NCBI GenBank assembly: GCA_001787005.1
Contig: MFUV01000004.1
Coordinates: forward strand, 105,770 to 169,769
Source of the DNA: Candidatus Nomurabacteria bacterium RIFCSPLOWO2_01_FULL_39_18
GTDB lineage: Bacteria > Patescibacteriota > Minisyncoccia > Phycocordibacterales > UBA9973
DNA: 64,000 nt
Reading direction: 5' to 3'
Numbering within the stretch: position 1 is the first letter of the stretch; each line of letters starts with the position of its first letter. The notes under the pieces are model-generated. The model was not told the DNA's origin and did no database searches. It saw only the letters and a list, made by a program, of their open reading frames with translations. The position numbers and the translations under genes were made by a program. Below are positions 1,378 through 29,717 of the stretch, one piece after another.

Positions 1378-1380
1378 ATT

Positions 1381-2562: not shown

Positions 2563-2567
2563 ATTTT

Positions 2568-4930: not shown

Positions 4931-4931
4931 T

Positions 4932-5348: not shown

Positions 5349-5457
5349 ACATCATATCAACAGTCCCCCCTTTACAAACTGGCTACTATGTAGTAGTCTA
5401 CGGGACATATTATTAATATAAATAAGTCGAATATTATAAGTAAGTTATTATAAATTT

Positions 5458-6599: not shown

Positions 6600-9500
6600 C
6601 TATTTCAACCCTATTGTTACAGAATAAACATTTCCATCATCAAGTTTGGTAGAAATGGTATACCAATATCCGGCTGGTAATTTTTTCGTACTCCAGTTAT
6701 AGATATACTGCTGACTTTCAGGATCCCATTTGTATGTGTTGCCAGTTGTCGCAGTGTCATTATAAACAGATTCAGTGGCGGAAACATTCATTTTCGCACC
6801 CATTTGCGCACCGAGCCATATAGGCGCCGAATCTGCTTGCATAATTGTGCCATCATATTTTCTAAGTTGAAATTTAACAGGGACTGTACTGCCAGCTTTG
6901 AATATGCTTTTCTCTTGATCAATTTGATGTGCTGTATCGTTTATTGGTTGGAGAAAACCAGAGAAAACATATGGCATAGTAACGGTTCTACCTTCAGGGG
7001 CAATAATATCTGTCTCTGGGACCCCATCTCCATTTTGATCAAGTTGTAATAATAAAGCTCCCGCAGAATTCAGTGTAACTTCTGCGATTGTCTCCGGGGT
7101 CACTGGAATATCTTTAAAGATTGTTGTCGTCGTTGTTCCATTGGTTAGAACCTTTTCTGATTCATATGTGAATATACCGGTATCTATACCTTTTATTTCT
7201 ATACTCCCCATTTCGTCTTCGGGGAGGTTTAAGTACTTACCCTCACCGAATTCCATATATGATGAATTCGTAATATTTTCTTCTACATAACAAAAGTCAA
7301 AATCTGGCGGGCAAATTTTACCAGTGTGATTAGGTACTGTAGCATAATCATAAGCATCGAGAGTAACCGGTGAGTGAATTGAAATACGAAAACGATTTTC
7401 TGTGTCTATTGGTTCGTTGTCTTTTACCACATTGTCTAATGCAACATCTCCAGCTTCAATTATTGATTTAATAAAATTATTCAGTGAATCGACTTCTAAA
7501 ATATCTTTATGTTCTCTGTTGAGTCTCAATATAGTATTATAATTTTTAAAATCTACCCAATATTTTTCCGCATTTCCAAGAAAATTCATATATTGCGCAC
7601 TAGGCACAACTACAGTTCCATCCCCATCCGAGGTAAAACGAGGTCTTTCGTCTAATGCATACGGAGGACATGTTACAGCTCCGGGTGGGCAAGACACTGA
7701 TTTTGGGTAGTACTCCATACTTGCGACAGTTTCGAGTCCCCAGCCAGCCACTTCAATCACTCGCATGTCTTCAGGCGGAGTCCATGCGTCTATATTGTCG
7801 TGCAAACTTTCTGCTTGAGAAAATAAATCTTGTGAGAGATTGATAGGCAAATTTGTTTCACCAATCAATGGATTGGTTCGACCTTCATTTCCAAAAAGAA
7901 AATCTTTGTACTCGTCATAGGAATCAATTACGCCACCAAAAGCTTGAACCATTTGTGTTGTAATTCCCGAAGGAATTGCATTATCCACGAATGTCGCAGG
8001 TGAAGCATCGACATGATTTATATATTCTTTACTTGGTAAAAGTCCATAAGCCCCGAGCATATTTCGTCCAAGTTCACGAGCGTGAATTTCGTCCATTAGC
8101 CAGCCACTCAAAATTCTCTGGTCATATCCATGGAGTATTGCTGGTACTGCCTTTGCTGTGCCAATTTCTGGCACGGCAACTAAAATTAATACATCTATAT
8201 TATCAATTAGATTATTTATTCCCGCAACCTTGTCGTCTTGTAATTTTTTCAAAAGCGTTTTAGCTAAAAGTCCACCGTTGCTGTGAGCAACAATGGTAAC
8301 TTTGCCGTTTTTTGATTCCGAGTCGACCAATGATTGTAGAGTATCGATTAACGAGACTGTTTCATTTTGATATTTTGTTCCATTGCTCACAATGTCTTCA
8401 ATGTCTTGTCGCCAGTCATAGGCATATTCTTTCCATTTTTTTATTTTTTGATCAGTAACCAATTGATCCATAGTTTCAGAAAAACTTTTATAGATATTTT
8501 GTCCCAAAGCCCCTGCTGGAAATGGCGTGTTTGTCTCTTTTATGATATCTCTTGTATAAATATCTAGATTCATGCTTGTTCCATCAGGATTCAAATACAA
8601 ATCTTCCACATCGCTGTTTGTATTTGGTTCCCATAACTGGTCTTCATCTCCATTATCTTGCTCGTACAATCTAGAACCCATTATTCCCGGCAAAAAGAGA
8701 ACATTGGAGAAACAGGTGGTGCAAGTCGGAACTTTCCAGCCATCTGGTATTTTCCAAGGGAAATTGTCGGTTACATTGCCAAAGCTAATCGCAGTATCAC
8801 AAATAAAATCATTATTTATATCATTACATCCCTCCTCTGGAGTATCGTGGTTGCGATAATAGTTACCACCTATTGGCATTGGTTGATAAATGAGATTTGC
8901 AGAATTACTAAAGGAAGAAATATTCGGAATGGACATGAAATTATTATTGTAAACTTTATTATTGTTTACATTTGAACTCATTGCGACACCTATATTAGTT
9001 ACAGAAATTGTGTTGTTGCGCACCGTTGTTCTTTGTGTATTCTGAGTTAAAAGTATTCCTGTGCTAATAATGTTTACACCAGGAATATATCCAGCTGTAT
9101 TGGTTACCACATTGCCATCAATGAGATTATCAAAATCATTAAAGGAAAGAAAAAATCCTAAACCGAAGCCACGTGTTTCGTTGTTTAAGAATCGGCTATT
9201 TGTTGTTTGAAACACACCAATCCCACTATCAAAACCTTCAATAATTAAATTTTTTACTGTAATGTTTTTTCTAAAAGCAATATTAATTCCACTTCCAACC
9301 CCAAATCCATTATTCCATTTCACTATTTTTCCATTACCGTCGAGCGTAATATTGTCATTCACAATTTGTATTACTTCGAACACATCCTGTGTCATGGTGC
9401 AAGTAAGGGTGACTTGGTTCCATATGCCAAATGTAGAGCAATCTCCGCCCGTAGTATCATTACGAATGGTTTTTGTACTAGGTTGAGTTTTAATGAAAAT

Positions 9501-9902
9501 TAAATGAGGTTCGTAGCCATTTAAAGTAAAAGTTGTATTTGGGGATTCATTTGCAGAACGTTGCACCACATTTTCCAATGAATCAATATAAAAATAAAGG
9601 TCTTGGTTTGGAAGATTTTCCAATAAAATAGTTATTTCTTCTTTGCCTGCTATTGGAATAAATACCACAGATGATCCTAGCGATATTTCTTTTATAATTT
9701 CAGTTTCGGGGCTAGAAGAAATAGTGATATCTAAAAAGTCTTGTATAAATGGAAGATTGGCTGTTTCCGTTGTCGAGGCAGACTCATTTAGGAGAATAGT
9801 ATCTTCAGCATTTACTGTATGCCCACCCCAAAAAGACACCAAAATGAGGACCACCACCCCAAATTTCAATGCATTTTTCAGTACAGTCATAAATATCTCC
9901 AT
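6600..9902 (-). CDS. large secreted multidomain protein: signal peptide + right-handed beta-helix repeats + LCAT-like lipase domain + C-terminal domains
   Basis: Signal peptide MTVLKNALKFGVVVLILVSFWGGHTVNA; NITLDGNGKIV / NITVKNLIIEG type beta-helix repeats; FLPGIMGSRLY and VTIVAHSNGGLL (GxSxG-type) motifs as in the LCAT family. ORF-track start 9980 overlaps a palindrome and was rejected in favour of MEIFM/MTVLK. Confidence 0.65.
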   Translation of the reverse strand: MEIFMTVLKNALKFGVVVLILVSFWGGHTVNAEDTILLNESASTTETANLPFIQDFLDITISSSPETEIIKEISLGSSVVFIPIAGKEEITILLENLPNQDLYFYIDSLENVVQRSANESPNTTFTLNGYEPHLIFIKTQPSTKTIRNDTTGGDCSTFGIWNQVTLTCTMTQDVFEVIQIVNDNITLDGNGKIVKWNNGFGVGSGINIAFRKNITVKNLIIEGFDSGIGVFQTTNSRFLNNETRGFGLGFFLSFNDFDNLIDGNVVTNTAGYIPGVNIISTGILLTQNTQRTTVRNNTISVTNIGVAMSSNVNNNKVYNNNFMSIPNISSFSNSANLIYQPMPIGGNYYRNHDTPEEGCNDINNDFICDTAISFGNVTDNFPWKIPDGWKVPTCTTCFSNVLFLPGIMGSRLYEQDNGDEDQLWEPNTNSDVEDLYLNPDGTSMNLDIYTRDIIKETNTPFPAGALGQNIYKSFSETMDQLVTDQKIKKWKEYAYDWRQDIEDIVSNGTKYQNETVSLIDTLQSLVDSESKNGKVTIVAHSNGGLLAKTLLKKLQDDKVAGINNLIDNIDVLILVAVPEIGTAKAVPAILHGYDQRILSGWLMDEIHARELGRNMLGAYGLLPSKEYINHVDASPATFVDNAIPSGITTQMVQAFGGVIDSYDEYKDFLFGNEGRTNPLIGETNLPINLSQDLFSQAESLHDNIDAWTPPEDMRVIEVAGWGLETVASMEYYPKSVSCPPGAVTCPPYALDERPRFTSDGDGTVVVPSAQYMNFLGNAEKYWVDFKNYNTILRLNREHKDILEVDSLNNFIKSIIEAGDVALDNVVKDNEPIDTENRFRISIHSPVTLDAYDYATVPNHTGKICPPDFDFCYVEENITNSSYMEFGEGKYLNLPEDEMGSIEIKGIDTGIFTYESEKVLTNGTTTTTIFKDIPVTPETIAEVTLNSAGALLLQLDQNGDGVPETDIIAPEGRTVTMPYVFSGFLQPINDTAHQIDQEKSIFKAGSTVPVKFQLRKYDGTIMQADSAPIWLGAQMGAKMNVSATESVYNDTATTGNTYKWDPESQQYIYNWSTKKLPAGYWYTISTKLDDGNVYSVTIGLK

Positions 9903-9978
9903 ATTAGCAGTATTTCCTAAAACGGCAACTGGGGGCCAGTCTGTAGTAGAGTTAGGGTTAATAAAATCTATAATTACC

Positions 9979-9998
9979 ATCTACGCCATGGCGTAGAT
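9979..9998. repeat. palindrome A copy 2 (ATCTACGCCATGGCGTAGAT)
   Basis: Perfect palindrome exactly between the stop of the 9998-10366 gene and the promoter region of the lipase gene. Confidence 0.9.
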
Positions 9999-10366
9999 TA
10001 GTTTGTATATGATTTAGCTAACTTAAATGTTTTAAATTCTTTCTGCAGGCCAATTCTTTTCAGATAAGCAAGAAAATCCACCGGCAGTGGCGAAGGCCCA
10101 ACCCAGACACTTTTCTGAATCATGACAAAATCAAAATTCTTAAGCTGTCGACGAAACCAATCTCGCTCTTTTTTCCTCGTATACGGAACATCGTACATTA
10201 AAAGTAGGTTCTTTGGCGCATCTTTTTTAAAATCAGAAACAAAAGAACGAAGATACAGCCGTTTGTTTTTTTTAGTATTTTTAAATTTTTTCGAATCACT
10301 GAAACTTGGCAAACCTAGAATATTCACCGGCACACCTTTGTAATAAAATTTCTTTCTTCTCGTCAT
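9998..10366 (-). CDS. small basic protein with Cas2/PaaX_C-like domain (paralog of 29178-29717 C-terminal half)
   Basis: LLLMYDVPYTRKKERDWFRRQLKNFDFVMIQKSVWVGP aligns with WRLVMYDLPIRFKKARDAFRFKLKDLGFFQFQKSAWIYP of the 179-aa paralog; the beta-YDV...R.Q.SV pattern resembles Cas2/VapD. Confidence 0.45.
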   Translation of the reverse strand: MTRRKKFYYKGVPVNILGLPSFSDSKKFKNTKKNKRLYLRSFVSDFKKDAPKNLLLMYDVPYTRKKERDWFRRQLKNFDFVMIQKSVWVGPSPLPVDFLAYLKRIGLQKEFKTFKLAKSYTN

Positions 10367-13423: not shown

Positions 13424-13428
13424 ATTTG

Positions 13429-13502
13429 TCCGTCCTCTTGGATTCGAACCAAGGACCCCAGAGGTATAAGCTCTGTGCTCTAACCAACTGAGCTAAGGAC
13501 GG
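13429..13502 (-). tRNA. tRNA-Ile (anticodon UAU)
   Basis: Manual fold: acceptor CCGTCCT/AGGACGG, D-arm GCTCAGTTGGTTAGAGC, anticodon stem CAGAG/CTCTG with loop CTTATAC, T-arm CTTGGTTCGAATCCAAG, discriminator A; CCA not encoded. Confidence 0.8.
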
Positions 13503-16471: not shown

Positions 16472-16577
16472 GGTATTTTTATATTATTTATTAAAAGTAT
16501 AATTTCGACAAAAAAGCAAAACCTAATTATCCATGATTATAGTACTTAACGCATTAATAGCAAAGTTGTCTTGTATC

Positions 16578-16977
16578 TGTGGAGATGGGGGAAATCGAAT
16601 CCCCGTGCAGAAGGTTATTGCTAAGAAGTCTACATACATAGCGCGCTTGTGGGTTTAAATTAAAAAATTTAGAAACGAGCCAAATATTTTTTAATCGATT
16701 CTCTTTGTTTTGCTGTGACATCGAGAAAGTCGCCACAGCTATCCCGATAATATTATGCCCGCTCTTATATATCGGAAGTCTATAAGAGAGACATCAGTTA
16801 GGCGTAAGCCGAGACTGAAGCGAAAGCAAAGTCCGCCTCACCGAAGTAAGGAGAAATTGAAGCTTTCACTTTAGAAGCTAATTTTGCAATTAACATTTAG
16901 ACAAATTTTTACGAGATTATGTCTATGCTCGGTATGCATCAATAACAAATGACCAACTGTCTATGCCTTGCATCCCC
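16578..16977 (-). ncRNA. ssrA: tmRNA (ssrA)
   Basis: 5' GGGGAUG pairs with 3' CAUCUCC-ACA; T-arm GGGGAUUCGAUUUCCCC; internal ORF ...ADFAFASVSAYA-UAA; lies directly downstream of smpB. Confidence 0.7.
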
Positions 16978-17000: not shown

Positions 17001-17447
17001 TCAACGTCCTTTGTATTCCCTACGAATCTCTCGATCCGTCTCTCGTTTTTTTATAGTTTCGCGTTTATCGAATTTTTTCTTGCCTTTGACTGCCGCAATT
17101 CCCACCTTTATTTTTCTCCCTCTATTATACACTGAAATTGGTACGATTGTCAAACTTTTACTTTTCTCATTTCCCGCGAGCTCGCTGATTTCTTTTTTAG
17201 TTAGCAGAAGTCTCCTATTGCGCAATGGATCATAGTCCTTCTCCGCATTTTTCGGCTGATATGGCGGAATACTTGCATTGATTAAATATGCTTCACCTCC
17301 CCGCACAATAACAAAGGCCCCCTCGAACGACATTTGCCCCCCTCTTACAGATTTAACCTCGGAGCCCAAGAGCTCAATACCTGCTTCGTATTTTTCCAAG
17401 ATTTCGTAGTTAAAACGCGCTTTTCTGTTTTCGGCATAGTGAGACAT
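17001..17447 (-). CDS. smpB: SsrA-binding protein SmpB
   Basis: ARFNYEILEKYEAGIELLGSEVKSVR... is a typical SmpB. Confidence 0.9.
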   Translation of the reverse strand: MSHYAENRKARFNYEILEKYEAGIELLGSEVKSVRGGQMSFEGAFVIVRGGEAYLINASIPPYQPKNAEKDYDPLRNRRLLLTKKEISELAGNEKSKSLTIVPISVYNRGRKIKVGIAAVKGKKKFDKRETIKKRETDREIRREYKGR

Positions 17448-18320: not shown

Positions 18321-18674
18321 ATGACCAGAGTAAAGAAGGGAGTACATGCATTAAAAAGAAGGAGAAGCATTCTAAAACAGACCAAGGGTTTTCGCCATGG
18401 AAGAAAGAGTAAAGAAAGGCAGGCTAAAGAGGCGCTTCTGCACGCTGGTAATTATTCTTTTGCCCACAGAAAAGACAAAAAGTCGCACAACAGGAAACTC
18501 TGGAATATAAAAATAAATGCAGGCACTCGTGAACTCGGAATGTCTTATTCTAGATTTATTGATGCACTGAAAAAGAAGAATGTATTGCTCGACCGTAAAA
18601 TCCTCGCTGATCTCGCGGAACACAATCCATCAACTTTTGCTAAGGTTCTGGAAAGCGTACAAGCAAAGGTCTAA
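18321..18674 (+). CDS. rplT: 50S ribosomal protein L20
   Basis: MTRVKKGVHALKRRRSILKQTKGFRHGRKS... Confidence 0.9.
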   Translation: MTRVKKGVHALKRRRSILKQTKGFRHGRKSKERQAKEALLHAGNYSFAHRKDKKSHNRKLWNIKINAGTRELGMSYSRFIDALKKKNVLLDRKILADLAEHNPSTFAKVLESVQAKV

Positions 18675-19282
18675 ATTTTATACTCTCCTATCTTGCTTTC
18701 TTCTATAAGAGTAATGATGCCTGCCACAAGTTTCTTAGGGTCTCCACTTACTGCGACCTTGGGAAAAGGACGGTGGCTTTTCTTTATAATATCTTTTAAT
18801 TCATCATCCATTTCCCACGGTCCCTCAAAAATGCCGATAGGTTTATTGTCCTCAAAGGCAACGGTAAATTCATGAATAGTCCCCACGCGACCACAGCCGC
18901 AAATAACCGCGTCTACAGAACGAGTCAACAGCAGATCTCTGCCTGGATAGCCGAAACCCGTATAAATAATCAAATCTAGATAGTCTACTGGAAGCTTATA
19001 AACTTCTACATGTTCACGCTCAGAGGCCGCCGGAGAAAAACCGATGGAAGTCCCCCCCATTTCTTTAGCTCCCATTGCAACCCAAAGCGGAAATCCCGTA
19101 GTTGCCCCTGTCACCAAGATAGCTCCCTGGCGCGCAATTTCACGCCCCAATTCTTTCGCTTTTTCCAGCGCATCCACTCCGCAATGACCCGTCTCAGCCG
19201 CGCCAGAAACACAGATTTTAATCTGGCTATGACCATGCTTTTTAGGGAAAATTGAGAGAGGATCCATATTTTCATTATACAT
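18671..19282 (-). CDS. LOG-family / TIGR00725-like Rossmann-fold nucleotide-binding protein
   Basis: ICVSGAAETGHCG...GAILVTGATTGFP motif arrangement. Confidence 0.5.
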   Translation of the reverse strand: MYNENMDPLSIFPKKHGHSQIKICVSGAAETGHCGVDALEKAKELGREIARQGAILVTGATTGFPLWVAMGAKEMGGTSIGFSPAASEREHVEVYKLPVDYLDLIIYTGFGYPGRDLLLTRSVDAVICGCGRVGTIHEFTVAFEDNKPIGIFEGPWEMDDELKDIIKKSHRPFPKVAVSGDPKKLVAGIITLIEESKIGEYKI

Positions 19283-19328: not shown

Positions 19329-20693
19329 CTAACACTCTAGTTTGATACTATCGCCCACCTCTGGCGCATACACGTCAATGCCCAAATTGTCTCGGAGCTT
19401 TTGCACTAGAAACATCGCGGACTTCGGCTCTCCCATAACTACAAAAACTTTTTTAACTGTGTCTTGCATATCCCCGACGAAATCGAGCAGTCCATCCGAA
19501 TCTTTATGTCCTGAATATCCAGAAATTGTCACAATATGCGACCTCACTATTACATCTTCTCCTGTGATGCGCACGGTCTTCACTCCTTCTTGGATTAAAC
19601 GCCCCGGGGTGCCTACTGATTGATAGCCAGTTAAGAGCAAGGTATTGTTCGGATCCGGCAAATAATGCCTTTCGTGATGCACCACCCGCCCGCCAGAAGA
19701 CATTCCGCTGCCCGCAATAACTATCTTTGGGTTAGGCACAGTAGCAATCATTTTTGACTCCTCCGACTTTAGCGTATTGTGGAGTCCTGGAAAATCAAAT
19801 AAATATTTGTCGCTTCTCATTGCCTTCCGCGCATCGTTATTTAAATAATTTTTATAGTGTTTGAAAACTTCGGTGAGGCGAATAGCCAGCGGAGAATCTA
19901 GGAAAATAGGCATTATTGGTATGCGGTTATTCTCTACCAAGGAGTCAAGCTCGAAAAGAAGCTCCTGCGAGCGCTCTAATGAGAAAGTCGGTATGATGAG
20001 TGTGCCCTTCCTTTTATGATTGTCCTCAATCGTTTTCTCTAGGAACCTCCTGCGGTCATCTTTGGATTCATGATTTCTGTCGCCATAAACAGACTCCATT
20101 ATTAGATAATCCACATCGGCAACCTTTTCAGTATCAGGAAGTATGGGCGAGGGACTATTGCCCAAATCCCCCGTAAAAAGGATTTTCTTACCATTGAAAA
20201 CGAATAAAATCATTGCCGAACCTAAGATATGTCCAGCATTCAAAAAGGAAACTTCGAGATTTAGAGTTAATTTTATTTTCTCGTGATAGTCAAACCCTTC
20301 CCAGAGAGAAAGCGCTTTTTTTATATTTTCGGGCGTGTAGATTTTGTCCAGAGAAAGTTCTGTGTTTTTGGACAAAATACCCATGGTGTCTTCAAGCATG
20401 AGAGAGGCAAGCGGCTTGGTGGGTTTTGTGGAATAAATTTTTCCATGAAATCCTTCATGAATTAGTTTCGGAATACGACCCACGTGGTCAACGTGCGCGT
20501 GAGTAATGAAAAGAATATCGATATCTTTCCCAGCATAAGGAAAGGGATCCCAGTTTACATCGTCCGCCAATTTCATTCCCTGAACAAGGCCGCAGTCAAT
20601 CAGAACTCTCTTGCCGTCAGCTTCTAAAAGAAAATTGGCTCCCGTCACTGAGCCTACTCCCCCGCAGAATGTTATTTTAGCAGTACTTTGCAT
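19329..20693 (-). CDS. metallo-beta-lactamase-fold beta-CASP family ribonuclease (RNase J/CPSF-like)
   Basis: HAHVDH (HxHxDH) motif, beta-CASP-like C-terminal half. Confidence 0.6.
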   Translation of the reverse strand: MQSTAKITFCGGVGSVTGANFLLEADGKRVLIDCGLVQGMKLADDVNWDPFPYAGKDIDILFITHAHVDHVGRIPKLIHEGFHGKIYSTKPTKPLASLMLEDTMGILSKNTELSLDKIYTPENIKKALSLWEGFDYHEKIKLTLNLEVSFLNAGHILGSAMILFVFNGKKILFTGDLGNSPSPILPDTEKVADVDYLIMESVYGDRNHESKDDRRRFLEKTIEDNHKRKGTLIIPTFSLERSQELLFELDSLVENNRIPIMPIFLDSPLAIRLTEVFKHYKNYLNNDARKAMRSDKYLFDFPGLHNTLKSEESKMIATVPNPKIVIAGSGMSSGGRVVHHERHYLPDPNNTLLLTGYQSVGTPGRLIQEGVKTVRITGEDVIVRSHIVTISGYSGHKDSDGLLDFVGDMQDTVKKVFVVMGEPKSAMFLVQKLRDNLGIDVYAPEVGDSIKLEC

Positions 20694-20704
20694 TATGCCA
20701 GTAA

Positions 20705-21112
20705 TTATACCAGATCTTCTTTGATTGGTTTAAGACTTTTCAGATAATAAAATGAGAAATAAAATATTGCAAAAATTCCGCCAGCTAAATCAAGCAAGAC
20801 ATCAGAGACAGTGTCTAGGACATTGAAAGGATTTTGAATATTGACTTTGTCGACAAAAAATTCAAATATCTCCCAGCAAATGCCCATGGCTAGCACAAAG
20901 AATAAAATTTTAAAAATTAATCTAAAAGAGATGGTGCCGAGCGCAAAGAAATAAATGTATGCCAGCCCAAGCCAGATCCCGCCCAGAAAATGCATAATCA
21001 TATCAAAATACCAAATAGAAGAATACCAGTAGAATTTATTTGCGGAAAAATTCACTAAAAAGATAAAAAAGATGAGGTACGCCAGGTGTTTGAAAAGCTT
21101 TTTTCTATCCAT
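20705..21112 (-). CDS. small polytopic membrane protein, hypothetical
   Basis: Hydrophobic helices; start codon embedded in an inverted-repeat element. Confidence 0.4.
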   Translation of the reverse strand: MDRKKLFKHLAYLIFFIFLVNFSANKFYWYSSIWYFDMIMHFLGGIWLGLAYIYFFALGTISFRLIFKILFFVLAMGICWEIFEFFVDKVNIQNPFNVLDTVSDVLLDLAGGIFAIFYFSFYYLKSLKPIKEDLV

Positions 21113-21240: not shown

Positions 21241-21505
21241 ATAAAAGTAAGAAAAAATCCGCCCGAAGCGGAATCCTTCTTAGGACTATTTCCAATGTAT
21301 TACCGTAGCTCAAAGCTAGGTGGGTGTCAGACAAGCTTGACCAAGGTCAAACCCGATCGAGACTCCCTAAAATTAGTGTTCTAGGTAATAATTGGAAATA
21401 ACCCTACTTTCAGTATAGCAAAATTATGGCGAGGAGCAACTGGACAGAAAGAATTTTTTGTTTCTGAATTAATTATAGAATTTTTGTCGTGATCCTGCTT
21501 AAGAA

Positions 21506-21541
21506 TTGTACATATATACGCTATAGCGTATATATGTACAA
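21506..21541. repeat. 36-bp perfect palindrome TTGTACATATATACGCTATAGCGTATATATGTACAA
   Basis: Self-complementary; directly abuts the stop codon of the last CYTH gene. Confidence 0.85.
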
Positions 21542-22084
21542 TTAAAAACGCATATTAAACCAGTCTAATTCGTATTCTTTTTTAATTAAAACTCTCTCCC
21601 CTTCACCAATACTTTTGTGATCTTCCAATCCGAGTATTTTTATTGCTTCTTGCACATGTTCATGACTTTTCCCTTCAATTTCCAGATAAGCGGGCATCCC
21701 TGGGTACTGATCCAGGTCAAATTGCCAATCCTTTAGGAGGAAAGATGCACGATCTTTTTCTTGATGGGCATAGTGCTCTATCCCGACATTTTCAAAAAGC
21801 TTCCCGGCAAGGATAGCATCACCAACACTTATATTTATCTCGTCAGAATGTCTGGTATTGCCTGTTATTTCTGGTAATGACTTCCAACTTATTTCAGACT
21901 TCCCACCCGTACTAGTTCGAATTCTTAAATACCATGGATCGTCGCCTTCATGGGTCAAACCTTTGGGTCCGTACCAATCGATAACAAGTCTTGTGTTCTG
22001 TATCTCTTTCGCGCCAAGTGCTTTTAACTTTTCTTTTACTTCTTCCTTATCTACATTTAAAACTTTCGTTTCAATTTCGTGCAT
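21542..22084 (-). CDS. CYTH-domain protein (triphosphate tunnel metalloenzyme / CyaB-like)
   Basis: N-terminal HEIETKVL (ExExK), LRIR and C-terminal YLEIE motifs. Confidence 0.7.
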   Translation of the reverse strand: MHEIETKVLNVDKEEVKEKLKALGAKEIQNTRLVIDWYGPKGLTHEGDDPWYLRIRTSTGGKSEISWKSLPEITGNTRHSDEINISVGDAILAGKLFENVGIEHYAHQEKDRASFLLKDWQFDLDQYPGMPAYLEIEGKSHEHVQEAIKILGLEDHKSIGEGERVLIKKEYELDWFNMRF

Positions 22085-22093
22085 AAAATCTAT

Positions 22094-22501
22094 TTAATCA
22101 ACAGGGCTTTCTACTTGCTCGTTTGTAAAGATAAAACTAGTTAAACCAGAATAGTACTGACTTTTAAACCATTTGACAGCTTCAGGGTCAACTTTGTTTA
22201 AAGCTGACAAGAGAGCATCCATTCTTACTTGATAAGTATAATTATCATTAGAATGTAATCTACTGTGACCACCCCCTACTTTTGGCGACACTAATGATCC
22301 GCCTGTAAACTCGGGCTCACCTGGGTCTAATGGGACTTTTATTTTGCCTAATGCTTCCTTAACAAAATCTGGAACAAAATCTGGAAAATTCTGAGGATTT
22401 AAAGTGATGTGCATATTATGTACTTGTTTCCCATGAAGTACCTCCGTAGGGAATTTTTCCTTCCCATATTCTTTTTTCCATGCTTCTGCTCTTGGATCCA
22501 T
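22094..22501 (-). CDS. hypothetical protein
   Basis: ORF only; embedded in the CYTH/ndk operon. Confidence 0.4.
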   Translation of the reverse strand: MDPRAEAWKKEYGKEKFPTEVLHGKQVHNMHITLNPQNFPDFVPDFVKEALGKIKVPLDPGEPEFTGGSLVSPKVGGGHSRLHSNDNYTYQVRMDALLSALNKVDPEAVKWFKSQYYSGLTSFIFTNEQVESPVD

Positions 22502-22509
22502 ACTAGTTA

Positions 22510-23064
22510 TTATAACTCATTTAATTTACTGTAAAGCATGATGTCATACTTGCCATCGATGACTTGATCTTCTTTTGAAACACCAAGGGTACTGAGAAAA
22601 TCGAATAATTCCTCTTGAATTTTCTTTCTGTCTTCGTAATCCTCGTGCTTTACCATCTTCTCTACTTCGATAAACTCTCCAAGTTGTTCCACAACATCAA
22701 GTACTATCTCCATATCTTTAAAGCTTGTCTTGATTCTCTTTTTATCCACGGTGGGGAGCTTATCCCATTTCATAAGTTCTAGAATCTCAACCATCATCGC
22801 CCCGTCCTTAATTTCCATTTCTCTTTCAATGCAATCCTGGTGACTACTCTGCGGAATCTTTAGGGTAAAAAAATATTTATCATTCTGTTTACGCACGCGT
22901 AAAACAGTCGCGCCCATAGGAACATCAGGATAAGGGGTTCCTTTTGGTGCAAACACATAATCAATTTGATGAAGCTCTTCGGAAAATTTACACCCAAGAT
23001 TTTGAAGTTTCTCCTTTACGGCTTCTCTATCCTTCAAAACCGCTTTTACTTCAACTTCATACAT
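22510..23064 (-). CDS. CYTH-domain protein (second paralog)
   Basis: YEVEVKAVL (ExExK), LRVR, FIEVE motifs. Confidence 0.7.
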   Translation of the reverse strand: MYEVEVKAVLKDREAVKEKLQNLGCKFSEELHQIDYVFAPKGTPYPDVPMGATVLRVRKQNDKYFFTLKIPQSSHQDCIEREMEIKDGAMMVEILELMKWDKLPTVDKKRIKTSFKDMEIVLDVVEQLGEFIEVEKMVKHEDYEDRKKIQEELFDFLSTLGVSKEDQVIDGKYDIMLYSKLNEL

Positions 23065-23069
23065 AAATT

Positions 23070-23663
23070 TTACTCATCCACTCCGAAACGTTTGTAGTCG
23101 TAAGTCGTGTCATCGCCGAACCAGTGTTTTATTTCATGCTCTGCTTCTTCGGGAGTTTCGGAACAATGAACAATATTCATTACTGCCCGTTTTTCTTTAT
23201 TCGCTAATGCCGGAGAATCAATCGAGAAATCCCCACGAATCGTCCCCACTTCTGCCAGATACGGCATCGTCGGTCCCGCAATTTTTCTCACCACATCTAC
23301 TGCATGCACGCCCTGCACAACCATTTTTACCAGCGGGGCAGATTTCATGTAGTCAACTAGCCATTTGCGAATTTCGGGACCAATTTGCGCAGGATCAATT
23401 GTGCCAAAATCAGCCAGCGCATCATAGCCATATTTTTCATAAGTTGAAAGAGTCTTGTGTCCAAGCCGAGTAATCCATTCTTCATTTTTTGGATAATGAG
23501 TGTCGAGCTGGTCATGAGATGGCTGGAACATTTCCAATGCCACAATCTTCAAATCTCGCTGTTCAAAACGACGGATAATCTCCCCCGTCAAGCCCTTGCG
23601 GACTCCGTCCGGCTTTATCATCACATATGTCTTTTCCTCTTTTGGATGTTTCATATTAACCAA
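23070..23663 (-). CDS. ndk: nucleoside diphosphate kinase (long form)
   Basis: TYVMIKPDGV ... NIVHCSET (NxxHxSD-like active-site His region). Confidence 0.75.
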   Translation of the reverse strand: MVNMKHPKEEKTYVMIKPDGVRKGLTGEIIRRFEQRDLKIVALEMFQPSHDQLDTHYPKNEEWITRLGHKTLSTYEKYGYDALADFGTIDPAQIGPEIRKWLVDYMKSAPLVKMVVQGVHAVDVVRKIAGPTMPYLAEVGTIRGDFSIDSPALANKEKRAVMNIVHCSETPEEAEHEIKHWFGDDTTYDYKRFGVDE

Positions 23664-23691
23664 TATAACAGAAAAAAATAATTTTGCAAAA

Positions 23692-24255
23692 TTATTTTTT
23701 TCTCATTCCTTTGAAAGTTATAGAGGAATAGTCGTCTATATTAATTCCATATCTTAGATAGCCTTCTTTGGCAGAAAAAATAAGACCATCTTTTGGATCA
23801 AGACCTATTTTTTGCGCAGAATTCTGTGCTTCTTTTATTGATGTTGATTCAACTTCAAGATAAGTGGGAATCTCCGGCCAAGAATCAATATCAAAAACTG
23901 TTTTTCCTTTCCTATATCTTATCTTTTTATTCTCTTCTTCCCTCTTTATCACAAGTCTGATAGATTTGAGTAATTCATAAGTTTTCTCATAATCATCTAC
24001 TATTACTTCTATTTCTTTCATTCCGGCATTGTCTCCATATCTTCCTTTTACACTTTCTTTGTAAGCTAGTGTTATTTCTTTCCCGTTGGTTCGTAACCTC
24101 AGCCATCGATCTCTCCGATTCATCCGAAAGTCTGGATAATCAAAAAGAGCTCGGCGGTAATCGTACTCTCCCACTTTCTCTGCGCTGATTTCTGCAAGCT
24201 TCTTCTCAAGTTTCGGGACGTCAACCTCTAAAAATGTAATTTCAAATTCTTCCAT
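23692..24255 (-). CDS. CYTH-domain protein (third, divergent paralog)
   Basis: EEFEITFLEVD, WLRLR, TYLEVE motifs; same size as the other two. Confidence 0.6.
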   Translation of the reverse strand: MEEFEITFLEVDVPKLEKKLAEISAEKVGEYDYRRALFDYPDFRMNRRDRWLRLRTNGKEITLAYKESVKGRYGDNAGMKEIEVIVDDYEKTYELLKSIRLVIKREEENKKIRYRKGKTVFDIDSWPEIPTYLEVESTSIKEAQNSAQKIGLDPKDGLIFSAKEGYLRYGINIDDYSSITFKGMRKK

Positions 24256-24257
24256 AA

Positions 24258-27023
24258 TTATTCCATCGTCTGATACCTCGCCATAATCTCCGCCTCCACT
24301 TCTTCTCGGTCGCGGCCGTATTTCACATAAGAAAGTTCTTTCAGAGAATCCACGATGTCGGGATTGCCTTTTTCTGGGGCTAGAGTTATCAAATTAAAAG
24401 GTTTAGTTGGTTGACCTTTTATTAGCATGCTCATGTAGGCATTGTAGTTGTCGAGCTTGGTGATGTCGGCCGCGGTAAATTGGGGCTTGAATTTCGGCTC
24501 GAGAAATGTCGCGTCCTCAGTGCCGACACGGAAGACGGCCATGGAACCGACATTGCCGAAGACTGCATTTTTAATATTGTCTTCGAGCTGAGTGATGTAT
24601 TGATGCGCAATATTAAGCGAGAGTCTATATTTGCGAGCTTCAGATAAAATAGAAGCGATGGAGTCAGTCGTAACATTCTGAAACTCGTCAATGTAGAGAT
24701 AGAAATCATTCATCGGCTTGCCAAACATGTCTACTCGCGAGAGCGCCGCCATCTGGATTTTGCCGACTAAGACAAGCCCGATCAGATTCGCATTGATATC
24801 CCCGAGTCTACCCTTCGAGAGGTTCACTAGAAGAATTTTCTTCTCATCCATAATCTTGCGGAAATTAAAAACAGAGTTCTGCTGAAGCACCACTGGGCGC
24901 ATAATGTCATTGGAAATAAAATTATCAAATTTTGAAGAAATATACGGCACGAAGTTCGCCAAAGATTGGTCTCCTGTTGTTTGCTCGGCGGAAATCCAGA
25001 ATTGTTTGATTATTGGATTCTTGCATCTCTCGAGCTTCATGTCGCGGAATTCTTTGTCAGCCAAAACACGGGTAATCTCGAGTAAGGTTGAGCCGGACTC
25101 GGGATTTTCCATCACTAAAAAGGCGCTATTTCTGAAATATTGTTCAAACATCGCCCCGCCTCCGACCTTCATGTCGAAGAGTTTATTGAAAATTCCCATC
25201 AGTTCGTTCACTACGAAAGTTTTCTGCTCTGGATATTTCGGATCATACTCGAGCATATTGAGCCCCATTGGGCGGGCAGTATAAGCCGGATCGAAATAGA
25301 TCACGTCATCGATACGCTCTTTCGGAATCCTGGACAAGATTGTCTGGATGTCTGTACCGTGCGGGTCTATATAACAGCAACCATCGCCAGCCTTTATATC
25401 CTGCGTAATCATATTGAGCATGATGTTGGTCTTTCCTGTACCCGTCTGACCGATGACATAGAAATGCCTCATGCGATCTTCGCGTGCCAGATGAATTATC
25501 GTATCGCGCCCCCGATAACTGTTAACTCCTAAAATCACACCCTCTTGTCCCATTTCGAGTGGCGCCGGCGCAATGCCAGCTTTGGCTTCTTTAAGCTGTG
25601 GCTGACTCCCGATACCAACCGGGAAATGAAAGACTGAAGAGAGTTCTTTCAAATTCATCGGCAAAATCTTATCATGGGAAAAAGAGCGGAAAGAAAAGTC
25701 TTGAAAAAGTTTTTTCAAATCATTTCCTTGCATTTCTTCAAAAAAGAAAGAATTGCTAGCCGCTTCAGAAAATTGGTGAAAGGAAGATTCTATCTCTTTC
25801 AAAATCGCCCCTGCGCGTTCTTTCGTCTCGGCAGAGGCTATCACTCGAATATTTGCCTTCATGATAGTGCTTTTTATTTTGTTGCCTATTTTCTCAGCTG
25901 CACCTTCGTCTACTGCCCGTCTGCCCTTCATATATTTTTCTTTTTTTTCTTCCGGCTCTTTCTTCACTCCAAAAACAAGTTCTTTGCCCGCTTTCAGCAG
26001 GGCATGATTGAATTTGTAGAAATTATCAGCCGCGTGTTTGACGGATACGCCATCCTTTACATCATCTAGGATCTTATGGAATTCATTTATGAATTTGTCT
26101 CCAGCCGGCGCGATAACAAGCTGAATCGCCGCGCCTTCTCCCACTGTTTGCAGTTTGGAAAAAACATTAAGTATTGGATTCATCGGATCGTGTTCGATAT
26201 TGTCATAGGTCTTGATCGGCATCACTGCTCGCTCGGTAAAGCTCGCATAAGCCCCGACTGACCCGCCAGAAACATTGAAAATATTATAGTCGTCGGTGAC
26301 CTCTCGAATTTTCGCATCATGATAAAATGCTAAAATTTGTTTTTCAAATAGCGTTAGATGTTTGTTGGGGATGGCGGCATAGACCACCACTTCATCGCTC
26401 TCTCCCGAAAGCGCCACTTCCAGGGTGAAATAATTTTCTTTTTCATTATTTTTACCGATGGAGATAGAATGCATGCCGGCATAAAATTGCTCCATCGCGC
26501 CGATGAATTCTTTGAACCCTTTTGATTTGTCAGCCTCATCGGTAGGTGGCGGAAGCGTTATTTCAAACAGGGTCATATTGAGCGATTTGTACAGTGGTGA
26601 GTCTTCTTTAAAATCGGACACAACTTGGCCGGTCTTTAAATATTGAATTAAGAGTCGGTGGAAATCGTCTTCAATATGCGGACTCCCCATCGCTTCCATC
26701 ACCGAGAGCGCATTTTTAATTCCTTTGGTAATAACAACGCCCAAAAGCTCTTCCATCACCACGTCGTGGGCTTCGGGCTTGAGCGCAAGCACGATACCCT
26801 CTTTGTCCTTCTTGTCTAGGAGAATACTTTCATATAAAGCCTGCCCTGCTGGCACATCCCTATACGCTTCTACAACTTCGCCGGCCGCATTTTCTTTAGC
26901 ATTTTCAAAATGTCCTATTTTAATTAATTCTTGCTCTCTTTTAGCAACATGCGCCCGCAAGTAGTCAAGCTCCTCTTCTGGAGTCTTAAACTTCGGCATT
27001 TCCTTAAAGAAGGATGGTTCCAT
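24258..27023 (-). CDS. FtsK/HerA-superfamily P-loop ATPase with VirD4/TraG-like (AAA_10/TraG-D_C-like) C-terminal half and long unique N-terminal region
   Basis: Walker A GQTGTGKTN, Walker B LYIDEFQ, SEARKYRLSLNIAHQ; no N-terminal TM helices. Confidence 0.5.
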   Translation of the reverse strand: MEPSFFKEMPKFKTPEEELDYLRAHVAKREQELIKIGHFENAKENAAGEVVEAYRDVPAGQALYESILLDKKDKEGIVLALKPEAHDVVMEELLGVVITKGIKNALSVMEAMGSPHIEDDFHRLLIQYLKTGQVVSDFKEDSPLYKSLNMTLFEITLPPPTDEADKSKGFKEFIGAMEQFYAGMHSISIGKNNEKENYFTLEVALSGESDEVVVYAAIPNKHLTLFEKQILAFYHDAKIREVTDDYNIFNVSGGSVGAYASFTERAVMPIKTYDNIEHDPMNPILNVFSKLQTVGEGAAIQLVIAPAGDKFINEFHKILDDVKDGVSVKHAADNFYKFNHALLKAGKELVFGVKKEPEEKKEKYMKGRRAVDEGAAEKIGNKIKSTIMKANIRVIASAETKERAGAILKEIESSFHQFSEAASNSFFFEEMQGNDLKKLFQDFSFRSFSHDKILPMNLKELSSVFHFPVGIGSQPQLKEAKAGIAPAPLEMGQEGVILGVNSYRGRDTIIHLAREDRMRHFYVIGQTGTGKTNIMLNMITQDIKAGDGCCYIDPHGTDIQTILSRIPKERIDDVIYFDPAYTARPMGLNMLEYDPKYPEQKTFVVNELMGIFNKLFDMKVGGGAMFEQYFRNSAFLVMENPESGSTLLEITRVLADKEFRDMKLERCKNPIIKQFWISAEQTTGDQSLANFVPYISSKFDNFISNDIMRPVVLQQNSVFNFRKIMDEKKILLVNLSKGRLGDINANLIGLVLVGKIQMAALSRVDMFGKPMNDFYLYIDEFQNVTTDSIASILSEARKYRLSLNIAHQYITQLEDNIKNAVFGNVGSMAVFRVGTEDATFLEPKFKPQFTAADITKLDNYNAYMSMLIKGQPTKPFNLITLAPEKGNPDIVDSLKELSYVKYGRDREEVEAEIMARYQTME

Positions 27024-28487: not shown

Positions 28488-29096
28488 ATGAAAAGACTTG
28501 GATTTAACATAGTGCTTCTTGGGATGATAGCTTCCGGCAAAGAAACACAGGCTAATATTTTAAAAAAGAAATACGCGCTAAAATTCGTGGAGTCTGGTGT
28601 GTATTGGCGAAAACTTTTGAAAGAAAAAAGTGTTGATGGAGACTGGGTAAGAAGAACAACTGGAAAAGGAAGCCCAGCCCCGGTTGCTTTGATGAAAAAA
28701 TTCCTAGTTAGAGAGATTGCAAAAAAACCGAAGAATAAAGATTTGCTTTTTTTGGGCAATCCTAGATTGAAACCTGAAGCACAACTTTTGAAAAAGATAT
28801 TGAGTAAAAAGAGACAAGATTTTTTCGCTTTATACATCTCTCTGCCCGACAAAGAAGTTTATAAACGATCTCTGAAAAGGAGAACTGGAAAAATGAAAGG
28901 AATTTATAAGGTATTTGATACAAAAAAAATTATCGGCACTAGAATCAAGTGGCACAAAGATCAAGTGGGTAAAACAGTGAAATATTTTCAAAGCCTAAAA
29001 AAATTAAAAATAATCAATGGCAATCAACCCATCCCTAAAGTTACCAAGGATGTCCTAAAAGAAATTGAGGAGTATAAAAAACGGAGAGAAAATTAA
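28488..29096 (+). CDS. adenylate/nucleoside-monophosphate kinase-like paralog with degenerate P-loop
   Basis: LLGMIASGKETQANIL (Gly-to-Glu in GKGT); basic C-terminus. Confidence 0.45.
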   Translation: MKRLGFNIVLLGMIASGKETQANILKKKYALKFVESGVYWRKLLKEKSVDGDWVRRTTGKGSPAPVALMKKFLVREIAKKPKNKDLLFLGNPRLKPEAQLLKKILSKKRQDFFALYISLPDKEVYKRSLKRRTGKMKGIYKVFDTKKIIGTRIKWHKDQVGKTVKYFQSLKKLKIINGNQPIPKVTKDVLKEIEEYKKRREN

Positions 29097-29124
29097 CAGG
29101 AACGTATGTTTAAAAACTTCTGTT

Positions 29125-29162
29125 CTGTTGTGAAATCACGCATATGCGTGATTTCACAACAG
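29125..29162. repeat. 38-bp perfect palindrome CTGTTGTGAAATCACGCATATGCGTGATTTCACAACAG (putative operator)
   Basis: Self-complementary; TGTGA..TCACA half-sites; 15 nt downstream of the wHTH gene stop. Confidence 0.85.
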
Positions 29163-29177
29163 AGAGTTTAAATAAAA

Positions 29178-29717
29178 TTAAAGTCCAAAGTGAACTTTTA
29201 ATTTTGTTTCATCTAAAACTTTACTTACTTCTAAAATCTCTATATGCTTACGAACTCCATAAAAATCCGCTACGAACAGAATCTCCCCTTCGCATGGATA
29301 TGGATAGATCCAAGCACTCTTTTGAAATTGGAAAAATCCTAAATCTTTTAATTTGAATCTGAAAGCATCACGAGCTTTCTTGAATCTTATAGGAAGATCA
29401 TACATAACTAGACGCCACTTACCATCCCATTTTTTAGAGTTCTTGATTACAACTTCATCAATTAAGATTTCTCGTAACTTATTTTCCCCCTTTGGAGTGA
29501 TTATATATTTTTCTTTACCCTCTACTCTCACATGTCTAACAAATCTATATCTCCTCAAGCCGTGAAAAATCTGTTGTGTTTTTCGATTATTGTTGATGAT
29601 CGGCGATAATTTTTCTCCCAAAGCAACAGCGCAAAGTAAGCTTTGCGCTAGATTCATACCCTCCCCACCAGAGCTAAAAAATTTCTTTAATTTTGCTAAA
29701 TGTTCTAGTTTAACCAT
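29178..29717 (-). CDS. putative transcriptional regulator: N-terminal winged-helix + C-terminal Cas2/PaaX_C-like domain
   Basis: wHTH-like GLRRYRFVRHVRVEGKEKYIITPKGENKL; C-terminal WRLVMYDLPIRFKKARDAFRFKLKDLGFFQFQKSAWIYP. Confidence 0.5.
   Translation of the reverse strand: MVKLEHLAKLKKFFSSGGEGMNLAQSLLCAVALGEKLSPIINNNRKTQQIFHGLRRYRFVRHVRVEGKEKYIITPKGENKLREILIDEVVIKNSKKWDGKWRLVMYDLPIRFKKARDAFRFKLKDLGFFQFQKSAWIYPYPCEGEILFVADFYGVRKHIEILEVSKVLDETKLKVHFGL

Follow-up and report, generated by a model that had tools for sequence, protein, structure and literature searches.

Here, we analyzed a 64,000-nucleotide stretch of the genome of Candidatus Nomurabacteria bacterium RIFCSPLOWO2_01_FULL_39_18 (contig MFUV01000004.1; hereafter the window) and found that, at the tail of the ribosomal-protein/secY-adk-map superoperon of this ultra-small groundwater member of the Paceibacteria, a 921-amino-acid (aa) ATPase is followed by a slot of variable content, which in this genome holds three genes for CYTH-domain proteins (CYTH-A, CYTH-B, and CYTH-C), ndk, and a 135-aa open reading frame (ORF). 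The reading that we favor, with a probability of roughly 0.6, is that genes for salvaging nucleotides and maintaining their pool have gathered around a housekeeping ATPase, that is, that two things lie side by side rather than forming one machine. Bacteria in the Candidate Phyla Radiation (CPR, or Patescibacteria), to which the Nomurabacteria belong, account for a large share of bacterial diversity; de novo nucleotide synthesis is generally missing in them, so that they cannot produce nucleotides themselves and depend on nucleotide salvage.

The gene order is as an earlier note on this DNA had described it: all reported ORFs of the cluster are present on the minus strand, in the order adk-map-ATPase-CYTH-A-ndk-CYTH-B-135-aa ORF-CYTH-C, with successive gaps of 6, 23, 2, 28, 5, 8, and 9 bp from adk to CYTH-C and then 429 bp to the next gene (table 1). 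The same arrangement occurs on many independently assembled contigs of this organism, and the start codon of ndk is TTG or, alternatively, an ATG 9 nt downstream. We compared this arrangement with two samples of relatives, namely 80 loci from GTDB genomes, one per species, from Patescibacteria-type metagenome-assembled genomes (some carrying other taxon labels) that were annotated with hidden Markov models (HMMs) of the window proteins, and 80 metagenome loci (L092-L171), independent of the GTDB sample and anchored on a structured RNA that lies downstream of CYTH-C. The relatives share a fixed backbone, secY-adk-map-ATPase-(slot)-structured RNA-DUF2238-metallo-beta-lactamase (MBL) nuclease-LOG, whether or not a CYTH gene is present. 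Among the GTDB loci, those whose ATPase is at least ~47-50% identical to the window copy have the order secY-adk-(variable)-map-ATPase-(variable)-ndk-DUF2238-MBL-LOG followed by a convergent rplT-rpmI-infC. In the GTDB sample as a whole, map is kept upstream of the ATPase in 17 loci, and ndk comes after it in 18 (directly so in 12), when only two, L009 and L016, have a CYTH gene in the slot. Every metagenome locus with recognized neighbors has this same backbone.

The CYTH genes are thereby recurrent but optional occupants of the slot, which vary in number and order. Indeed, the whole slot, with both the ATPase and the RNA visible, could be read in 37 metagenome loci, and 27 of these have no CYTH gene (ndk alone in 24, a 360-aa adk-like kinase alone in 3), against 10 that have CYTH-C only (3), B and C (2), B only (2), A only (2), or all three (1). 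In L001 and L002, whose ATPases are 87% identical to the window copy, the genes run secY-adk-map-ATPase-ndk-DUF2238-MBL-LOG, and CYTH genes, the 135-aa ORF, and the second adk are all absent. The slot of L016, whose ATPase is 52% identical, has the order ndk-B-A-C, with B, A, and C orthologs that are 64, 44, and 61% identical to those of the window, and in L009 a single A-type CYTH is accompanied by a NUDIX gene, an IS200-like transposase, an adk-like kinase of 358 aa, and an HD protein. As for the more distant ATPases of the GTDB loci (41-50% identity), none of these neighbors was found beside them, and their surroundings hold dnaX-like, RmuC, and DUF5663 genes. The earlier note had named conservation of the gene order in relatives as a check, and the order is conserved to the extent that other Nomurabacteria have CYTH genes at this very locus, as one-to-one orthologs of A, B, and C; a fixed number and order is not what the relatives have.

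These observations bear directly on the proposal, made in the earlier note under the heading of an operon fusing the ATPase with the CYTH proteins, that the ATPase, the three CYTH proteins, and ndk form one dedicated, undescribed system for nucleotide signaling, polyphosphate, or nucleotide transfer. In such a system, the CYTH and ndk proteins would make or consume the substrate moved by the motor. We regard this as very unlikely. The packing is tight, down to the 2 bp that separate the ATPase from CYTH-A, the order ATPase-A-ndk-B-x-C recurs in L088 and the trio in L016 and L132, and CYTH-C was seen nowhere but in this slot, both in the five contexts looked up and in the RNA-anchored loci; set against this are the 27 of 37 slots that lack CYTH genes, the close relatives with 85-87% identical ATPases that lack them too, the variable sets (A, B, C, BC, ABC) and order, the unrelated neighbors, such as dnaX and rmuC, of ATPases that are 41-50% identical, and the fact that the ATPase evolves like a core housekeeping gene when the CYTH proteins diverge faster. 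The ATPase is not bound to the CYTH genes, which, along with ndk, have the appearance of an optional addition for nucleotide housekeeping and not of a new machine with a dedicated task.

The CYTH proteins themselves are genuine and not unrelated small proteins, since all three exceed the Pfam gathering cut-off of 23.2 bits for CYTH (PF01928; scores in table 1). They are mutually only 16-23% identical, against 44-81% identity to their orthologs elsewhere, which rules out a recent paralogy: they are anciently diverged subfamilies with one-to-one orthologs in other genomes. All three have such orthologs in L016, L088, and L132, and B and C have them in L087, L089, and L091. Orthologs of CYTH-A are 41-61% identical in L016, L009, and L088 and up to 80% in L132, and those of CYTH-B are 59-70% identical. 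CYTH-C, for which 437 homolog clusters were found, is the last gene of the slot in every place where it was found, and in five of the five contexts looked up it lies between the ATPase and DUF2238/MBL. The catalytic motifs read EVEVK, VLRVR, and EVE in CYTH-B, EIETK, YLRIR, and EIE in CYTH-C, and EFEIT, WLRLR, and EVE in CYTH-A, where ExExK has become ExExT (Thr at residue 7). Among 120 listed homologs of CYTH-C, ExExK is found in 115, Y/FxRxR in 118 (Y in 100, F in 18), and ExE in 118; because one-to-one orthologs recur and because the catalytic motifs of CYTH-C are kept in 115-118 of 120 homologs, these proteins are to be seen as conserved enzymes and not as junk. The Thr that replaces the motif Lys of CYTH-A is found in this organism only, when all orthologs seen have Lys, and it is not an assembly error, since the exact protein is carried by 23 contigs. 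Our literature search on CYTH proteins in Patescibacteria returned nothing useful.

Which activity these enzymes may have can be approached through the marks that separate the branches of the superfamily, namely HFxxxxExExK, an xRxR whose first Arg has given way to a small residue, and ExA for class IV adenylate cyclases, or ExExK, xRxR, and ExE for triphosphatases, to which thiamine triphosphatases add a W or Y before xRxR (Vogt et al. 2021, PMC8233210). That the CYTH proteins would be class IV (CyaB-type) adenylate cyclases, and the cluster a cyclic AMP (cAMP) signaling module (the earlier note lists class IV adenylate cyclase among the CYTH activities), appears scarcely credible in this light, as none of the three cyclase marks is present. 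The first Glu is residue 3 in CYTH-A, B, and C, which start M-x-E-x-E, and in 109 of the 120 CYTH-C homologs, so that the HFxxxx extension is absent, and a longer N-terminus is not possible because the upstream gaps of 2-9 bp leave no alternative start; moreover, both Arg residues and ExE are kept in all three proteins. In favor of the cyclase label, CYTH-B scores 79.6 bits with the NCBIfam model cyaB (TIGR00318), above its cut-off of 57.95 bits, when CYTH-C (41.2) and CYTH-A (32.3) fall below it, and several sources name homologs “adenylate cyclase class 2,” as the Joint Genome Institute does for many homologs of CYTH-C. TIGR00318 does not separate SaTTM-like triphosphatases from cyclases (PMC8233210). 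The best solved relative of all three proteins is SaTTM (Saci_0718; CYTH-B at 9.7e-10), a triphosphatase that makes no cyclic nucleotide. We rejected a cAMP cyclase identity on the three sequence criteria.

Judged by their motifs, CYTH-A, B, and C are instead predicted triphosphatases. In the alignment to SaTTM, the position of its Ala54 is occupied by Val in CYTH-B, Trp in CYTH-A, and Tyr in CYTH-C, that is, the aromatic residue of the thiamine-triphosphatase type (W/YxRxR) is found in A and C, when B has V. The substrate of CYTH-A and CYTH-C is probably an organic triphosphate that would stack on this aromatic residue.

The other genes of the slot are in keeping with a nucleotide and phosphate metabolism theme, which the earlier note had rightly perceived. 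The usual occupant is ndk, the commonest, or the 360-aa adk-like kinase, and occasional ones are NUDIX, HD, HIT, histidine phosphatase, toxin-antitoxin, and IS200-like genes. More broadly, the interval between secY and MBL of the syntenic loci holds pyrH-like AA_kinase (5), cytidylate kinase (2), NUDIX (2), and HD (2) genes, YfbR-like HD_3 being also among the nucleotide-themed genes of the slot and its surroundings, along with DUF559, an MNT/HepT pair, an SRPBCC protein, and assorted housekeeping genes. Loci without ndk carry an adk-like protein of 358-364 aa in the slot (L009:14656-15732, L089:5346-6428, L090:1675-2757, L119, L132, L135, L141, L144, and L163), which suggests a non-orthologous replacement of ndk. 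Even the kinases that are shared are not of one kind: the ndk of the window is 81-88% identical to those of L010 and L016 and 32-43% identical to those of most syntenic relatives, and its adk is 38% identical to that of the closest relatives and 56-58% to those of L008 and L010. Given these splits in identity, there are two deeply diverged ndk types, and likewise two deeply diverged adk types, at the same syntenic position.

On the reading that we favor, the variable slot between the ATPase and the structured RNA mainly collects enzymes that interconvert or hydrolyze nucleotide phosphates. The kinases encoded by adk, the second adk (adk2), and ndk would raise salvaged nucleoside monophosphates and diphosphates to triphosphates, and the CYTH enzymes would hydrolyze triphosphates, B as a generic tripolyphosphate or nucleoside-triphosphate type, and A and C acting on an organic triphosphate held against the aromatic W/Y. 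Together, kinases and CYTH proteins would keep the pool of nucleotides and phosphate balanced or clean in a bacterium that depends on salvaging its nucleotides.

Several points weigh against this picture. The CYTH-A of this genome, with its ExExT motif, may be impaired. Co-transcription of the cluster is probable, as judged from the 2-28 bp spacing. The HMM for CYTH was built on few sequences, such that very divergent CYTH proteins could be missed and the CYTH genes undercounted. Throughout the clade, the ATPase is a constant neighbor of ndk/adk, the MBL nuclease, and LOG, which could be the sign of a functional link. Lastly, the slot also carries non-metabolic cargo, namely an MNT/HepT toxin-antitoxin pair, DUF559, IS200-like transposases, and orphans, and so behaves partly like an integration hotspot, which fits a defense-island reading too.

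In this last regard, the slot might be a hotspot of defense or conflict genes, in which the CYTH proteins, with NUDIX, HD, and HIT proteins, would act as nucleotide-depleting or signal-degrading effectors swapped between strains, a possibility akin to the defense-like module of the earlier note. Its content does differ strongly among close relatives, with the MNT/HepT pair and DUF559 in the slots of L022 and L008 and IS200-like Y1 transposases in those of L009 and L088, small orphan ORFs stand where the window has the 135-aa ORF, and PADLOC reports a similarity of the ATPase to mad8/HerA that is weak and partial only. We nonetheless hold this hypothesis to be unlikely: neither PADLOC nor PHROGs gave a match for the CYTH proteins, ndk, or the 135-aa orphan, no sensor or effector architecture was recognized, the commonest occupants are ordinary kinases (ndk, adk-like), and the divergence of the CYTH-B and CYTH-C orthologs roughly parallels that of the host backbone, albeit at a higher rate. 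The 135-aa ORF also has no match in Pfam or NCBIfam and retrieved nothing but itself among 5.8 billion proteins; elsewhere, its position is taken by unrelated small ORFs or by HIT/HD genes.

We then turn to the ATPase, which is vertically inherited, housekeeping-grade, and clade-wide. Among close relatives, its identity to the window copy tracks that of SecY and IF3 (87, 85, 77, and 62%, against 84, 84, 78, and 65% for SecY). The family counts 19,697 clusters at 50% identity with E<=1e-3 and 4,976 with E<=1e-30; more than 100 clusters are 85-88% identical to the window ATPase across its full length, and most relatives align to residues ~145-917 only. By Pfam, the protein passes TraG-D_C (23.0 bits vs. 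a cut-off of 22) and TrwB_AAD_bind (21.7 vs. 20.5) narrowly and stays below threshold for DUF87, and the NCBIfam profiles agree with Pfam for the cluster proteins. Walker A (GQTGTGKT, residue 525) and Walker B (YLYIDE, residue 775) are both intact. A PDB sequence search returned TrwB alone, with a marginal E of 0.08, hence the need for a structure prediction of the ATPase, which was obtained with AlphaFold2 from a 32-sequence alignment (mean predicted local distance difference test 84.3). Searched against the PDB with Foldseek, the predicted model is closest to TrwK/VirB4 of R388 (E 7e-13, alignments of ~905-910 columns), and its C-terminal motor resembles TrwB (E ~1e-11, target TM 0.64-0.68 over ~450 residues).

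The ATPase comprises three modules: a helical one (residues 1-135), DUF8128 (139-480), and a TrwB-like P-loop motor with an all-alpha insertion (490-921), the helices of which span residues 600-703 in the predicted model. The N-terminal part, which the earlier note had thought unique, is not so. It corresponds to PF26449 (DUF8128) in the precomputed Pfam annotation and is common to thousands of relatives, with a VirB4-like fold in the model. The first module has a history of its own: in 18 loci of other Patescibacteria, a gene of ~141 aa stands at position -1, on the same strand, before a shorter ATPase of ~790 aa, and the HMM of this upstream gene matches residues 13-127 of the window ATPase (E 1.3e-8) and every long-form ATPase tested. 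Because of these matches to the N-termini of the long forms, residues 1-135 are to be seen as a fused partner protein. We found no membrane anchor, as the maximum 19-residue Kyte-Doolittle value is 1.54 at residue 743, inside the nucleotide-binding domain (NBD), and the N-terminus is devoid of any hydrophobic stretch. The description that fits the protein best is that of a soluble VirB4/VirD4-superfamily protein that combines a VirB4-like N-domain with a motor of the type IV coupling protein (T4CP) kind. Its homology makes a hexameric translocase most likely, one that would act on nucleic acid or protein and would have been co-opted for a chromosomal function. Our literature search on DUF8128 found nothing useful. 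In a separate observation, the ATPase of L091:2004-4748 is called as two ORFs (691 and 214 aa), which could be due either to a frameshift or assembly error or to a genuine split.

At its distal end, the slot is bordered by a structured RNA: the 429-bp gap after CYTH-C holds an element whose conservation exceeds that of the genes on either side. Upstream is a promoter-like TTGCTC-N16-TATACT; then comes the 124-nt core (21282-21405, minus strand), which a short linker separates from an intrinsic terminator (21272-21258). The predicted fold is a rod, closed by a long helix, with a large internal loop and, at its apex, a hairpin that carries a CUUG loop. With a covariance model, the element was recovered from 18 of the earlier loci and from 73 of the 80 metagenome loci, with at least 120 metagenome matches, in every case on the same strand as the genes and just upstream of DUF2238 or MBL. 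In a first test of covariation, 91.8% of the alignment cells were paired, against 34-44% in slid controls, with compensatory changes in 25 of 42 pairs; with 67 further sequences, 95.8% were paired, against 32-47%, and 17 pairs had compensatory changes, the observed values being reached by 0 of 500 shuffles in both tests, on alignments that were fitted to the model and so favor the structure, a bias that the slid controls carry as well. In Rfam, there was no RNA match at gathering score or at E<=0.1. The RNA is an unannotated, covariation-supported, widespread element without known family. From its layout, it may be either a leader or riboswitch for DUF2238-MBL-LOG or a free 6S-like small RNA.

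Alternatively, the whole neighborhood could be conceived as a nucleic-acid/nucleotide scavenging unit of Paceibacteria, in which a soluble motor derived from a type IV secretion system (T4SS) would import or thread host-derived DNA or RNA, the MBL nuclease and LOG would degrade it, adk, ndk, and the CYTH proteins would recycle the products, and the RNA would sense a nucleotide and gate the distal genes, the CYTH trio being an optional triphosphate-handling extension. The block adk-map-ATPase-(ndk or adk-like)-RNA-DUF2238-MBL-LOG is indeed kept throughout the clade, in loci whose ATPase identity goes down to 47%, the motor has the DNA-translocating T4CP and VirB4 proteins as homologs, CPR bacteria are generally without de novo nucleotide synthesis, and the RNA has a riboswitch-like layout, with a closing helix, conserved loops, and a terminator ~25 nt before the DUF2238 start codon. 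Synteny alone is nevertheless no proof of function, as the whole neighborhood, ribosomal genes included, is syntenic in the clade; furthermore, the ATPase has no membrane anchor, a channel partner was not seen nearby, and more distant family members are without these neighbors. We judge such a pipeline quite unlikely, and we rate both it and the defense hotspot below the accumulation of salvage and pool-maintenance genes around a housekeeping ATPase.

The coordinates of the cluster, its distal border, and its surroundings are given in table 1, together with the features of the relatives mentioned above.

Table 1. Features of the cluster and its surroundings in the window, and slot contents and related features in relatives (L, loci of relatives).
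Feature	Coordinates	Strand	Basis or remark
adk, adenylate kinase, 195 aa	27839-28426	-	Pfam ADK 5.2e-18; first of the closely spaced co-directional genes
map, type I methionine aminopeptidase, 261 aa	27047-27832	-	TIGR00500 268.6 bits vs. cut-off 171; Peptidase_M24 6e-42
921-aa soluble ATPase, VirB4/VirD4 (T4CP) superfamily, DUF8128 family	24258-27023	-	Family matches, AlphaFold2 model, Foldseek
ATPase residues 1-135, helical module, fused small partner	26619-27023	-	HMM of upstream ~141-aa gene
ATPase residues 139-480, DUF8128, VirB4 N-terminal-domain fold (predicted model)	25584-26609	-	
CYTH-A, 187 aa, WxRxR subfamily	23692-24255	-	Pfam CYTH 40.5 bits
ndk, nucleoside-diphosphate kinase, 197 aa, internal insertion	23070-23663	-	Pfam NDK 5.5e-36, two stretches
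CYTH-B, 184 aa, classical triphosphate-tunnel-metalloenzyme type	22510-23064	-	Pfam CYTH 78.7 bits
135-aa ORF (hyp135), species-restricted orphan	22094-22501	-	No family match
CYTH-C, 180 aa, aromatic Y/FxRxR subfamily	21542-22084	-	Pfam CYTH 33.6 bits
Perfect 34-nt palindrome	21507-21540	n/a	1 nt past the CYTH-C stop codon
Structured RNA, ~155 nt, distal border of slot	21252-21405	-	Alignment, covariance-model matches, covariation
DUF2238 membrane protein, distal backbone	20705-21112	-	Precomputed Pfam annotation, identical contigs
Beta-CASP MBL nuclease, distal backbone	19329-20693	-	Precomputed Pfam annotation, identical contigs
LOG/LDcluster4 protein, distal backbone	18671-19282	-	Precomputed Pfam annotation, identical contigs
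Second, divergent adk, between secY and adk	28488-29096	+	ADK 1.4e-15
PaaX_M/Cas2-like 179-aa protein, between secY and second adk	29178-29717	-	
Structured RNA in relatives	L001:13428-13551; L016:7045-7170; L087-L091; L092-L171		
Slot of L087			ATPase-292aa-ndk-B-85aa-C
Slot of L088			ATPase-A-ndk-B-His_Phos_1-Y1_Tnp-HD_3-61aa-C
Slot of L089			ATPase-adk360-B-C
Slot of L090			adk360-C
Slot of L091			ATPase-ndk-B-His_Phos_1-HIT-C
MNT/HepT toxin-antitoxin pair in slot	L022:12860-13673		
DUF559 endonuclease-like gene with NUDIX in slot	L008:12833-13876		
IS200-like Y1 transposases in slot	L009:13291-13926; L088:5632-6306		

The divergent adk paralog that the earlier note had placed nearby is real and belongs, with the PaaX_M/Cas2-like gene, to a lineage-specific insertion (28488-29717) between secY and adk that is absent from L001 and L007 and present in some metagenome loci. 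A second PaaX_M/Cas2-like small protein is encoded at 9998-10366 of the window, beside recG. The palindrome (TGTACATATATACGCTATAGCGTATATATGTACA) occurs as a single copy in the window, when 0 are expected by chance, and it was not found in the aligned relatives, as it sits in a window-specific insertion of ~110-170 nt; being a single copy that relatives lack, it was ruled out as a repeated element. Elsewhere in the window, we noticed, at 148-5916 and 6600-9980, type IV pilus genes (PilB-like T2SSE, PilC-like T2SSF, and prepilin) and a 1126-aa protein that has NosD-like beta-helix and LCAT/lipase-like domains, as well as a tRNA-Ile with anticodon UAU (13428-13502), and a tmRNA gene (16577-16977) that adjoins smpB (17001-17447). 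In the relatives L001 (3224-4637) and L002 (same positions), a diversity-generating-retroelement-like pair (bAvd-like and reverse transcriptase) and a 208-aa ORF lie inside the ribosomal protein operon, between rplE and rpsN.

What the locus offers is of three kinds. First, this family of secretion-type ATPases is very large (~5,000 clusters at 50% identity, E<=1e-30), and in Nomurabacteria its member is conserved about like SecY and fixed at the end of the ribosomal superoperon, with a VirB4-like N-domain, predicted from the model, that sequence annotation missed. Second, one variable slot brings together nucleotide kinases and hydrolases of triphosphates or nucleotides, among them three CYTH subfamilies labeled as adenylate cyclases that are almost certainly not cyclases, and this set provides concrete candidates for nucleotide-salvage enzymes. 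Third, the slot is bordered by a widespread structured RNA that belongs to no family. The locus thereby corrects annotations and turns vague ideas of T4CP exaptation into testable targets.

From a comparative perspective, the ATPase shares with the T4CPs TrwB, VirD4, and Cag-beta a P-loop NBD that carries an all-alpha domain and in which Walker A and B are intact, together with the marginal TraG-D_C and TrwB_AAD_bind matches. It differs from them by its want of an N-terminal membrane anchor, by ~480 extra N-terminal residues, and by its place inside the ribosomal/secY-adk-map cluster, where it is conserved like a core gene; no relaxase or T4SS genes were found beside it in the syntenic loci, where the neighbors are adk, map, ndk, CYTH, DUF2238, MBL, and LOG. 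With VirB4 (TrwK of R388), it shares, in the predicted model, the fold of the VirB4-type N-terminal domain, but identity is 9-11% and the motor is T4CP-like, not VirB4-like, in sequence profiles; it has no Pfam CagE_TrbE_VirB match and no VirB3, VirB6, or VirB8 neighbors. Resemblance to HerA is more remote, with DUF87 at 19.2 bits vs. a cut-off of 23.2, no NurA nearby, and HerA structures that rank under VirB4 and TrwB. In Patescibacteria, a survey counted 5,713 VirD4-like T4CP homologs in 2,918 genomes, of which 148 near virB4, and raised exaptation as a possibility (Quinonero-Coronel et al. 2025, PMC12102498). The window ATPase is very probably one of these homologs, and the survey describes neither the DUF8128/VirB4-like N-domain, nor the fused small partner, nor the conserved position after adk-map.

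Homology over both the N-domain and the motor is also found in two other places. One is the PHROG family phrog_5156, which matches residues 147-921 of the ATPase with E 7.7e-79; the other is a set of ~913-aa proteins annotated as “DUF87 domain-containing” and encoded by conjugative-type plasmids of Bacillus and by Herelleviridae phages (20-24% identity by tblastn over residues 195-919). The comparison covered the Bacillus phages JL, Shanette, CP-51, and G and the plasmids L212 and L213; in the Herelleviridae phages, the gene stands beside a StbA/ParM-like gene, and in a 65-kb plasmid of B. subtilis it lies a few kb from the TcpD/TcpE conjugation genes. These homologs are on mobile elements, whereas the CPR gene is chromosomal, syntenic, and vertically inherited.

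With regard to the RNA, a rod-like fold and a large internal loop, the 3' strand of which is able to fold into a mini-hairpin, recall 6S RNA, and a closing helix with an intrinsic terminator after it, a short way ahead of a start codon, recalls transcription-terminating riboswitches; it differs from both in that no Rfam family is matched even at E<=10, where an isrK-like terminator is the only hit, and our literature search on 6S RNA in CPR yielded nothing useful. As for the CYTH proteins, they have the ExExK, xRxR, and ExE motifs in common with SaTTM and other triphosphate tunnel metalloenzymes, from which they differ by their low identity (range 16-29%), by the aromatic residue of CYTH-A and CYTH-C where SaTTM has Ala54, and by the presence of three subfamilies in one locus. 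The WLRLR of CYTH-A and the YLRIR of CYTH-C place this residue at the tryptophan of the 25-kDa thiamine triphosphatase that stacks on the thiazolium, a likeness in motif and for CYTH-A and CYTH-C only, and the stacked moiety could equally be a nucleobase. Taken as a whole, the locus is made of known kinds, that is, a VirB4/T4CP-derived ATPase and CYTH triphosphatases with nucleotide kinases, and is not a new system.

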